NCBI RefSeq assembly: GCF_017115105.1
Contig: NZ_JABXKH010000156.1
Span: forward strand, 1 to 48,000
DNA from: Nostoc sp. NMS2
GTDB taxonomy: Bacteria > Cyanobacteriota > Cyanobacteriia > Cyanobacteriales > Nostocaceae
Direction: 5' to 3'
DNA length: 48,000 nt
In this document: positions 7,543 through 9,753 of the stretch, in pieces
Numbering within the stretch: position 1 is the first letter of the stretch
How the letters are laid out: each line of letters opens with the position of its first letter
Notes under the pieces: model-generated
Databases searched by the model: none
The model's input: the letters and a program-made list of their open reading frames with translations, nothing else
Told to the model about the DNA's origin: nothing
Translations under genes and position numbers: made by a program

Positions 7543-7653
7543 GGGGGTTTAAGTCCCCTGTCTCTACAGACAGCGAGTTTTGGGTCGGGGTCTAAATCCC
7601 CGTCACAAAACTTAATTACGAATTACGAATTACGAATTACGAATTATTTAATT
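7543..7653 (+). repeat. Composite dispersed element: GGGGTTTAAGTCCCC hairpin + GTTTTG..GGGG..CCCC..CAAAAC hairpin + (AATTACG)x4 + AATTATTTAATT terminus
   Basis: Read directly from the sequence. A second copy in opposite orientation lies at 17000-17152. The shared terminus AATTATTTAATT (7642-7653) contains the sbnB-like stop codon and its last sense codon. Confidence 0.85.
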
Positions 7654-8673
7654 GCGTTGTAGCCAGGAAATAGGGAAAAATGATTGAATAATTGTTCCTT
7701 GATTTTCTTTAGTAGCTAAATCGTAGGCTAGCTTTCCTAAAGCTAAGTCAAGGATGCCTAATCCAAAAGGACTGAATACAGTAATTTTGTTATCTTGTCG
7801 TGGTTGAGCGACACCATTAAGAATACTGCCTATACTACATCTAATAAAATCTCGGTTATCTGTGAGTTGTTCAGCAAGATGAATAGATGTTTGAGCACGG
7901 CATACATGGTCTATATCATCAACAATATTGTCGGCTGATAAAATGAATTCTGGTGATAGATCTCGTAGAGATATATGCAAGATTATTTTATTAGCATTAC
8001 TATCTAAAGTATCGAATATATATGGTTTACTTGCTGTTGTGCCAAAAGATATTAAAGATGCAGCTTGTAAAACACTGCTGGGATCTTCCAGAATAAGAAT
8101 ATTTAAATGCTCACATAGCTGCTGACATTTAAGTTTGAATTGCTTTGCTCTAGCTAAACTTAAATCATGAATAAATAAGGTTTCTATTTCAGGGCGACTA
8201 GCTAAGAGAAAACGCAAGGTTTCAAAATTAATTAAACCACAGCCAATCATACCTACTTTAGTTAATGATTGCTCACCCTGCAAATGATCGGCCGCGATCG
8301 CAGCACTAGCAGCAGTACGTTTTGCACTAATCACAGAGCTTTCCATCATAGCTTGGGGACGGCCATTCTGTGTTGAATTTAAGATTAACACAGCTGAGGC
8401 TCGCTCCATATCCATAGCTAAATTGTCTGGAAAAGAAGCAATCCATTTGATGCCTGCTGCCTCAAACTCACCATCTAAATAAGCTGGTAAAGCAATAATT
8501 CTATTTTTAGTATTTTGTGGAAAACGCAAAAAGCTAGAATGAGGCAAGAAACTATTACCTTGTTCATAAGTTTGATAAGCAGATTTAATGATTTGCATTA
8601 TTTCCAAATCACGGTTTTGAAATAACGAGACAATTTCATCGCCTTTCAAAATAAGTATTTGATCATCGTTCAT
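7648..8673 (-). CDS. sbnB: SbnB-like NAD-dependent dehydrogenase (ornithine cyclodeaminase/mu-crystallin fold), second step of L-2,3-diaminopropionate synthesis
   Basis: 341 aa. The blocks GIKWIASFPDN...MERASAVLILNS...MESSVISAKRTAASAAIAA and the Rossmann motif GMIGCGLI match S. aureus SbnB as I recall it. It is adjacent to the SbnA-like gene. Confidence 0.8.
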   Translation of the reverse strand: MNDDQILILKGDEIVSLFQNRDLEIMQIIKSAYQTYEQGNSFLPHSSFLRFPQNTKNRIIALPAYLDGEFEAAGIKWIASFPDNLAMDMERASAVLILNSTQNGRPQAMMESSVISAKRTAASAAIAADHLQGEQSLTKVGMIGCGLINFETLRFLLASRPEIETLFIHDLSLARAKQFKLKCQQLCEHLNILILEDPSSVLQAASLISFGTTASKPYIFDTLDSNANKIILHISLRDLSPEFILSADNIVDDIDHVCRAQTSIHLAEQLTDNRDFIRCSIGSILNGVAQPRQDNKITVFSPFGLGILDLALGKLAYDLATKENQGTIIQSFFPISWLQRN

Positions 8674-8736
8674 ACGAAAAACCTCTGTTGTGTAGTAAAT
8701 AGAAAATACCTAAAAAATGAAGATTTTGCAGATAAT

Positions 8737-9753
8737 TTAATCTTGCCAAGCAGAAGAAACATTACCAAAATGGTTTTCAACCCAATTATCTGAATAAATT
8801 GTGTCAAGGTAGCGTTCACCGCGATCGCATAAAATAGCAACACAGTTTGCACCATTAGGTATCTCTCGTGCTTTCTTGGCAATTGCAGAGATAATTCCTC
8901 CTGATGAACCTCCGGATAGTATTGCCTCTCGTTTGAGTAAACTACGACAACCCACAATACAATCTAAATCAGATACATACAAATGTTCATCCTCTAATCC
9001 AGGTTCAAATAACTCTGGAATTCTTGCTGCACCAGGCCCAGGGATGAGTCGTTTACCTCGTTTACCTCCGAAAATCACACTTCCTTCAACATCAACAGCA
9101 ATAATTTTTGTCTTGAGCTTTTTACCCTTAACATATTCAGAGCAACCACGAAGTGTGCCACAAGTACTAGTAGCACAAAACAAGTAATCAAGCTGTCCAT
9201 GTAGTGCTGTAACAATTTCATGTACAGTCTGATAATGAGCATAAGAATTATTTAAATTGGCATACTGATTGCACCAAAAGCTATTGGGAATAGAAGCAAT
9301 CAATGACCTCACTTGATTAATTCGAGCTGGCAAATAATCTCCTGTGATTGGATCTGGCTTTGCCACTAGAACAATCTCTGCTCCATACGCCTTGAGAATA
9401 TTGATATTTTGTTGTGTTGTTCTCAAGTCAACTACACAGATAAAACGTAAGCCGAGAAAAGTACATGCTTGCGCCAAGCCGATGCCTAAATTTCCGGAAC
9501 TAGATTCGATTATTGTAGTTTCAGAATCAATCTTTCCTAATTCAAAGGCTCTTTTGAGCATATTAAAAGCTGGACGGTCTTTGATGCTACCTCCAGGATT
9601 AAACATTTCTAGCTTGCCAAAAAGTTGAAAGCGATCGCATTGCATAACCCGGTTTAACTTAATCAAGGGTGTATTACCAATTGTCCCTAAAATCCCCTGA
9701 TTAATTGAAAACAAATCCAGATGTGATATATCCTTTTCTGTAGCTAATATCAT
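8737..9753 (-). CDS. sbnA: SbnA-like PLP-dependent enzyme (cysteine-synthase fold), first step of L-2,3-diaminopropionate synthesis
   Basis: 338 aa with the PLP-Lys motif NPGGSIKDRPA, then ESSSGNLG, NQYAN, AVDVEGSVIFGG, GGSSGG and DRGERYLDTIYSDNW. These match SbnA blocks (..AVDAKGSVIFG..DRGDRYLDLVYSDTW..). Confidence 0.85.
   Translation of the reverse strand: MILATEKDISHLDLFSINQGILGTIGNTPLIKLNRVMQCDRFQLFGKLEMFNPGGSIKDRPAFNMLKRAFELGKIDSETTIIESSSGNLGIGLAQACTFLGLRFICVVDLRTTQQNINILKAYGAEIVLVAKPDPITGDYLPARINQVRSLIASIPNSFWCNQYANLNNSYAHYQTVHEIVTALHGQLDYLFCATSTCGTLRGCSEYVKGKKLKTKIIAVDVEGSVIFGGKRGKRLIPGPGAARIPELFEPGLEDEHLYVSDLDCIVGCRSLLKREAILSGGSSGGIISAIAKKAREIPNGANCVAILCDRGERYLDTIYSDNWVENHFGNVSSAWQD

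Follow-up and report, generated by a model that had tools for sequence, protein, structure and literature searches.

An SbnA/SbnB-type pair predicted to supply L-2,3-diaminopropionate to a hybrid PKS-NRPS lipopeptide cluster in Nostoc sp. NMS2

In Staphylococcus aureus, SbnA and SbnB (structures 5D84 and 4M54) are encoded by an adjacent gene pair in the staphyloferrin B operon. [quoted passage not shown] SbnAB-type genes are also found within gene clusters for nonribosomal peptide synthetases (NRPS) or for hybrids of polyketide synthase (PKS) and NRPS, where they feed L-Dap to an adenylation (A) domain. Such cases are SulG/SulH with SulM in sulfazecin, CmnB/CmnK in capreomycin, VioB/VioK in viomycin and SzoB/SzoJ in sandarazol biosynthesis, and L-alanosine provides a further example of SbnAB-type genes inside an NRPS cluster. 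Here, we analysed an sbnA-sbnB pair and its surroundings in a 48,000-nucleotide stretch of Nostoc sp. NMS2 DNA (contig NZ_JABXKH010000156.1, positions 1 to 48,000), hereafter called the window. The pair most probably constitutes an L-Dap pathway dedicated to a hybrid PKS-NRPS lipopeptide cluster, with Dap as the presumed terminal residue of the product, and we assign this reading a probability of roughly 0.85.

Judged by their sequences, the two open reading frames (ORFs) are full-length orthologues of SbnA and SbnB. They are located on the reverse strand with a spacing of 63 nt, exactly where an earlier note on this DNA had placed them on the basis of short motif blocks, and all of these blocks were recovered. 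SbnA contains GGSIKDRP, NQYAN and DRGERYLDTIYSDNW, while SbnB contains GIKWI (residue 74), MERAS (residue 89), RTAA (residue 119) and GCGLI (residue 144), which are identical in S. aureus SbnB. In the NCBIfam comparison, SbnA reached 424.5 bits with the SbnA equivalog TIGR03945 (cut-off 349.95; E=2e-127; model positions 2-304 of 304) and SbnB 404.1 bits with the SbnB equivalog TIGR03944 (cut-off 326.9; E=3.9e-121; model positions 2-327 of 327). All rival models stayed below their cut-offs, namely cysKM (232.9 bits, cut-off 344), CysK (215.8, cut-off 351) and CysM (184.5, cut-off 394) for SbnA, and archaeal alanine dehydrogenase (AlaDH; 105, cut-off 409) and ornithine cyclodeaminase (OCD; 48, cut-off 350) for SbnB. 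The equivalogs led the next family by about 190 bits for SbnA and about 300 bits for SbnB, and Pfam resolved both proteins at the superfamily level only (PALP and OCD_Mu_crystall, respectively). Among solved structures, the top match of SbnA was S. aureus SbnA (5D84, E=8e-77), ahead of cystathionine β-synthases (CBS) and cysteine synthases, and that of SbnB was S. aureus SbnB (4M54, E=9e-39), ahead of AlaDH; the capreomycin enzymes CmnB and CmnK ranked lower and are thus more distant than the S. aureus enzymes. The earlier note had named L-Dap synthesis from O-phosphoserine and glutamate as the function of the pair, with best hits to ordinary CysK/CysM and OCD as the outcome that would speak against it; the search returned the specific families instead, and the assignment holds as far as such data can carry it.

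The active-site residues agree with this assignment. The SbnA proteins of Nostoc and S. aureus share 42.9% identity over 303 residues in a pairwise alignment. According to the account in PMC12414870, which cites Kobylarz 2016, Lys47 of S. aureus SbnA forms the Schiff base with pyridoxal phosphate (PLP), residues 72-78 form an active-site loop, and Arg132, Tyr152 and Ser185 are key to the selective binding of O-phosphoserine, with Gln151 as an additional residue. The Schiff-base lysine is kept as K58, and the latter four residues as R144, Y164, S196 and Q163. The loop reads ESSSGNL instead of ESTSGNL, with the conservative exchange of T74 to S as its sole change and with S75, G76, N77 and L78 retained. 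For SbnB, we aligned the Nostoc protein with S. aureus SbnB and 17 orthologues from related loci and used the AlaDH of Archaeoglobus fulgidus as outgroup. Of the 37 columns that show no variation among the 18 other SbnBs, the Rossmann GCG motif among them, the Nostoc protein keeps all and AlaDH 24, a comparison that measures family conservation and not ligand contacts. Thirteen SbnB-specific positions (R50, P52, R58, I59, I60, R91, A92, E111, I115, A121, S235, D238 and R259) are present in the Nostoc protein and missing from AlaDH, and the MERAS block counts among these specific features.

Because of the orthology with the characterised enzymes, the same chemistry can be expected in Nostoc. 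SbnA would use PLP to eliminate phosphate from O-phospho-L-serine and to add the amine of L-glutamate to the resulting aminoacrylate, yielding ACEGA, and SbnB would oxidise ACEGA with NAD+ and hydrolyse it to L-Dap and 2-oxoglutarate. The DabABC route of the monobactam MM42842 clusters follows a similar principle, in which the skeleton of the amine donor is removed after a PLP-dependent β-replacement on an O-phosphorylated hydroxy-amino acid. It differs, however, in using L-Asp, an argininosuccinate-lyase-like DabC and a Thr kinase, whereas the Nostoc partner is of the NAD+-dependent SbnB type. Since the partner is of this type and no DabA- or DabC-like genes were present among the window ORFs scanned, the DabABC route is excluded.

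The presence of sbnAB in cyanobacteria is not new. NCBI already names the exact proteins "2,3-diaminopropionate biosynthesis protein SbnA/SbnB" in Nostoc sp. NMS1 and NMS2 and holds members that are at least 90% identical from Nostoc sp. DSM 114159, 114160 and 114167; four public contigs show this gene order. In addition, a survey of 130 cyanobacterial genomes for six Dap routes was carried out by Mantas, Nunn, Codd and Barker (2022), and the summary of their work reports only SbnA/SbnB, in a limited subset (PMC9414260). Thus, the central point of the earlier note was right, but its general form had been published, and its claim that a Dap source in a Nostoc-type genome is newly of note does not hold; what is new is an uncharacterised cluster of a well-known kind. 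The enzyme pair itself, consisting of textbook SbnA/SbnB orthologues, is of small significance.

In a scan of species-representative genomes, about a dozen cyanobacteria (Stigonema, Iphinoe, Coleofasciculus, Tolypothrix, Aetokthonos, Rhizonema, Scytonematopsis, Fischerella, Chamaesiphon and Nostoc) yielded SbnA relatives with 69-77% identity, the top match being 77% identical, and Chloroflexota, Herpetosiphon and Paenibacillus yielded others with about 60% identity. In 20 of the 22 top loci, the gene for SbnA is followed by that for SbnB; of the two exceptions, L009 has no sbnB match on its 4.5-kb contig, and in L010 the contig ends within sbnB. Wherever a contig has enough flanking sequence, the pair is flanked by NRPS or PKS-NRPS genes, in cyanobacteria and also in Chloroflexota, Herpetosiphon and Paenibacillus, and the order NRPS-MFS-sbnA-sbnB is kept in L001, L011 and L016.

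Some of these similarities extend beyond the pair. Nostoc and a Chloroflexota metagenome-assembled genome (L011; JBCDFA010000055.1, 1-12059) have in common a cassette that comprises a module ending in thiolation (T) and epimerization (E) domains, a terminal unit of two condensation (C) domains, A(Dap), T and thioesterase (TE), the MFS gene, sbnA and sbnB, all in the same gene order, and the L011 homologue of NRPS3 is 45% identical over its full length. Herpetosiphon aurantiacus (L016, 4531-12037) shows the NRPS-MFS-sbnA-sbnB order of Nostoc. The shared cassette and gene order suggest that the cassette has moved between phyla.

The A-domain codes point to the last module as the destination of L-Dap. 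Stachelhaus codes were extracted against GrsA-PheA, and the reference gave DAWTIAAICK as expected. The code of A3, the A domain of NRPS3 (Table 1), belongs to the pattern DIWE[I/L/M]TADDK, which occurs beside sbnAB in 14 related loci (L002-L005, L007, L008, L010, L011, L013-L015 and L017-L019) from cyanobacteria, Chloroflexota and Paenibacillus, hence in three phyla, and is the single code common to these sbnAB-linked loci. In the Paenibacillus loci, it is carried by the sole A domain in the flank upstream of sbnAB. Moreover, a truncated domain in L001 matches in part (----LTADDK), and L022 has the variant DIWTMTADDK. The pattern was not present in two control NRPS loci without sbnAB (L085 and L086), which showed other codes. 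On the basis of this co-occurrence across three phyla, we infer L-Dap to be the last residue, loaded by A3. DIWE[I/L]TADDK may therefore be a candidate predictive signature for Dap incorporation, and current predictors may lack such a code; in a paper by Townsend, prediction failed for a related Dab/Dap-loading domain of the Burkholderia thailandensis E264 NRPS (Dab, 2,4-diaminobutyrate).

The other two A domains carry different codes. A2 of NRPS2 reads DSWDVGAIGK. The code of A1 in the hybrid PKS-NRPS1, DVGELASIDK, is ornithine (Orn)/Dab-like and matches 8 of the 10 positions of the classical Orn code DVGEIGSIDK. A multiple alignment in which positions 299/301 were shifted by one residue had given this latter code for A1 itself, but anchoring at the conserved Gly302 supports DVGELASIDK, and the domain is Orn/Dab-like either way.

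The NRPS cluster that the earlier note had seen around the pair is real by its Pfam domains, and its proposal of a lipopeptide product is well founded. The cluster consists of nine genes on one strand (Table 1), in the order hybrid PKS-NRPS1, NRPS2, NRPS3, MFS, SbnA, SbnB and DevBCA. The first megasynthase opens with a fatty-acid--AMP ligase (FAAL), an acyl carrier protein (ACP), ketosynthase (KS) and acyltransferase (AT) domains, a second ACP and an aminotransferase, and FAAL families were the top NCBIfam matches for its residues 1-620. The term lipopeptide is justified because this is the way in which iturin and puwainaphycin synthetases arrive at a β-amino fatty acyl starter; the likeness to iturin/mycosubtilin and puwainaphycin (PMC4219810) extends over the whole FAAL-ACP-KS-AT-ACP-aminotransferase-C-A-T loading logic. 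The Nostoc line differs from these systems in having three amino-acid modules instead of 7-10, in its predicted cationic character (an Orn/Dab-like residue plus Dap) and in an extra, degenerate starter-type C domain. The last domain of NRPS2 contains the E-type motif HHLAVDGVSWRIL, and the TE of NRPS3 has the nucleophile motif GHSFG, with Ser. DevB, DevC and DevA exceed their NCBIfam cut-offs (TIGR02971, 331 bits, cut-off 129; TIGR01185, 397 bits, cut-off 290; TIGR02982, 361 bits, cut-off 296).

In the pathway that this architecture predicts, FAAL would load a fatty acid, which one KS/AT extension and the transaminase would turn into a β-amino fatty acyl unit. The three NRPS modules would then add an Orn/Dab-like residue, a D-configured residue and the terminal L-Dap. 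The Ser-type TE might release the product in linear form or as an iturin-like head-to-tail macrolactam, and the MFS protein and DevBCA would export it. The cluster thus predicts a short β-amino-fatty-acyl-(Orn/Dab-like)-D-X-Dap tripeptide, an undescribed, very short and probably cationic lipopeptide from Nostoc. Closely related clusters exist in the culturable strains DSM 114159, 114160 and 114167, so the product can be sought.

Table 1. Features of the sbnAB-containing cluster in the window, with coordinates in nucleotides
Feature	Position	Strand	Description
Hybrid PKS-NRPS1	22066..32391	(-)	3441 aa; FAAL-ACP-KS-AT-ACP-aminotransferase(class III)-C-A1-T; Pfam
NRPS2	17163..21884	(-)	C-A2-T-E; Pfam
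NRPS3, terminal module	11458..16851	(-)	C'(DCL-like)-C''-A3-T-TE; Pfam
C'', extra starter-type C-like domain	14152..15447	(-)	NRPS3 residues ~469-900, between C' and A3
A3 adenylation domain of NRPS3	12640..14112	(-)	Code DIWEITADDK; putative L-Dap activator
MFS transporter, probable exporter	10143..11456	(-)	Pfam MFS_1/MFS_3; start 2 nt past NRPS3 stop codon
sbnA	8737..9753	(-)	338 aa; predicted PLP-dependent O-phospho-L-serine + L-glutamate to ACEGA synthase
sbnB	7648..8673	(-)	341 aa; predicted NAD+-dependent ACEGA dehydrogenase releasing L-Dap + 2-oxoglutarate
devB-devC-devA tripartite ABC exporter	4297..7468	(-)	Directly downstream of sbnB

NRPS3 begins with two C domains in tandem. The first of them, C', follows the E domain of NRPS2, carries the motif SHHHLLLDGWS and looks like the working condensation domain; homologues occur in Herpetosiphon, Rhizonema and Chloroflexota. 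The second, C'', reads NIHQIIGDGLS, in which the second, catalytic His of the HHxxxDG motif is replaced by Gln. Its identity to ordinary C domains is about 20%, and that to its only internal counterpart, the domain of Chloroflexota L011, which reads YH, is 40%. At E<=1e-20, C'' has seven relatives in 5.8 billion proteins, all with the canonical HH. In the three contexts inspected, these relatives either form the beginning of the first NRPS gene, with stand-alone acyl/aryl-activating enzymes next to it (L085, L086/87), or occur as a stand-alone C''-T beside an AMP-ligase (L088), and none of the three contains sbnAB nearby. A PDB search with C'' gave generic NRPS matches (LgrA, TycC). The simplest reading is that C'' is the degenerate relic of a starter-type C domain, from a Cstarter-A(Dap)-T-TE unit that became fused behind a normal C domain; it may alternatively serve a second acylation, on the β-amine of Dap. 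An interface or X-type recruitment domain, as in β-hydroxy-Asp siderophore NRPSs, was also considered and rejected, as the relatives have canonical HH and open assembly lines or stand alone, and as no trans-acting tailoring enzyme is present in the window.

Two observations on the megasynthase genes may be added. The start of NRPS3 (16804-16851, reverse strand) differs among public annotations, giving 1797 aa versus 1781 or 1777 aa, and the core motifs of the first C domain lie 3' of both starts. In the linker between aminotransferase and C domain of the hybrid PKS-NRPS1, a perfect 48-nt direct repeat (25347-25394 and 25425-25472, 78 nt apart and in frame) duplicates a 16-residue peptide; there is no further copy in the window.

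Several points weigh against the dedication of the pair to the lipopeptide and the placing of Dap at its end. In the searchable literature, no paper assigns DIWEITADDK or DIWELTADDK to Dap, no compound resembling β-amino-fatty-acyl-(Orn/Dab-like)-D-X-Dap is described, and no product is given for the cluster. A known Dap-loading domain, SzoF of sandarazol biosynthesis, has a Ser-like code (PMC8048970). The acidic, Orn/Dab-like pocket of A1 could in principle accept Dap, and a PDB sequence search with A3 yielded generic NRPS matches (LgrA, TycC) that are silent on specificity. As regards a transcript shared with the NRPS genes, sbnA has a gap of 389 nt upstream of it, and a promoter and terminator scan of positions 4000-11600, in which sites were fewer than in shuffled sequence, offered no operon information.

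The alternative that fares best, unlikely as it is, places Dap in a siderophore, as in staphyloferrin B. The founding SbnA/SbnB serve such a compound (PMC3179956), Mantas et al. 2022, according to the summary in PMC9414260, also stressed such a role for the cyanobacterial enzymes, and the MFS protein is Mef/EntS-like and weakly similar to EntS, which exports enterobactin (62 bits, below the cut-off). In S. aureus, however, the Dap consumer is an NRPS-independent siderophore (NIS) pathway of the IucA/IucC type, whereas in Nostoc it would be a FAAL-PKS-NRPS line without siderophore hallmarks. The Pfam survey of window ORFs of at least 150 aa revealed no IucA/IucC-type NIS synthetase, TonB-dependent receptor or uptake binding protein, and the window likewise contains no N-hydroxylase, β-hydroxylase or catechol (dihydroxybenzoate) genes and no Cy domains. 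Furthermore, the A-domain codes do not indicate Asp, hydroxy-Asp or hydroxamate precursors, and the transporters in the window are exporters. With its defining genes missing from the window, we reject a siderophore in favour of the Dap-ended lipopeptide.

Less probable still is a contribution of the pair to the neurotoxin β-N-methylamino-L-alanine (BMAA), which the earlier note had brought up. In this case, the pair would supply Dap, free or released from a peptide, to an N-methyltransferase encoded elsewhere, or SbnA would take methylamine directly instead of glutamate. If true, this would be the first defined genetic basis for cyanobacterial BMAA. Its formation in cyanobacteria has long been hypothesised to proceed by methylation of 2,3-DAP (PMC9414260), and in sandarazol biosynthesis carrier-bound Dap is N-methylated by an embedded methyltransferase (MT) domain (PMC8048970). 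In diatoms, CysK and methylamine are proposed to yield BMAA (PMC12184485), and CysK and SbnA are both members of the PLP fold-type II family. However, this diatom pathway, the sole BMAA route genetically tested so far, is proposed to bypass Dap. In agreement with the observation of the earlier note that no N-methyltransferase is visible, Pfam found neither a methyltransferase gene nor an NRPS-embedded MT domain in the NRPSs, all ORFs of at least 150 aa and the GNAT ORF of the window, and all three A domains are of normal length (~485-490 aa) without insertion. The absence of an MT domain from the Dap module also separates the cluster from N-methyl-Dap systems of the paenilamicin/sandarazol type; sandarazol differs further in its Ser-like Dap A domain, which does not show DIWExTADDK. 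The substrate residues of the Nostoc SbnA are those of the Glu/OPS enzyme, and only a limited subset of cyanobacteria possesses sbnAB. Finally, the pair lies among NRPS genes and is conserved together with them, which points to channelling of Dap into a peptide. For the BMAA debate, the outcome is thus mainly negative, since a Dap source that is wired to an NRPS, phylogenetically patchy and without a methyltransferase does not explain the widely reported BMAA, and the supposed relevance of the pair to this toxin finds no support.

Marginally weaker again is the idea that the terminal Dap module and TE make a monobactam-type β-lactam, like SulM in sulfazecin. The TE of NRPS3 has a Ser nucleophile, whereas the β-lactam-forming TE of SulM reportedly uses Cys (Oliver, Li and Townsend 2018), and the window contains no sulfotransferase or other tailoring gene. 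What the two systems share is that the SbnAB-type enzymes SulG/SulH feed L-Dap, which provides the β-lactam carbons, to the last A domain of a TE-ended NRPS (PMC10906522). Dap would thus be the last residue before the TE in both, but the Nostoc cluster is without sulfotransferase, Cys-TE and β-lactam logic, and with these defining genes missing a monobactam is rejected as well. Capreomycidine and ureido tailoring, as in the capreomycin and viomycin systems, are both lacking in the Nostoc cluster. Chance adjacency of an ordinary cysteine synthase and an OCD/AlaDH paralogue, which would belong to the same Pfam superfamilies, can practically be dismissed, because the scores of the CysK/CysM/CBS and OCD/AlaDH models fall well short of the curated cut-offs and those of the equivalogs exceed theirs, because the pair is syntenic across 20 loci, and because the OPS-specific residues and the invariant SbnB columns are present.

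The flanks of the cluster look like housekeeping regions and encode HtrA-like proteases, a LuxR-type regulator, FtsH, peroxiredoxins and an ammonium transporter. Beyond the end of devBCA, two tandem paralogous trypsin-like/PDZ (HtrA-type) proteases are followed by an overlapping LuxR-type response regulator (1359-3756, forward strand). A series of redox and detoxification genes at 38944-42148 on the reverse strand encodes a peroxiredoxin-glutaredoxin fusion, an α/β hydrolase, an NAD-dependent epimerase/dehydratase-family protein and a glutathione peroxidase. Rfam and tRNA scans of the entire window gave no matches. Two forward-strand ORFs, at 33167-33952 (261 aa; directly upstream of the cluster and divergent from it) and at 148-996 (282 aa), matched no Pfam family at E<=1; the latter is listed as PF27522 (YDMC) in a precomputed table. 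On the strand opposite to the cluster and about 2 kb from its start, a GNAT acetyltransferase (34179-34616, forward strand, 145 aa) lies directly upstream of a class-IV aminotransferase (34634-35431, forward strand), which is PabC/IlvE-like and below all NCBIfam cut-offs. The lipopeptide or Dap may be a substrate of one of these two enzymes, for instance in self-protection by N-acetylation.

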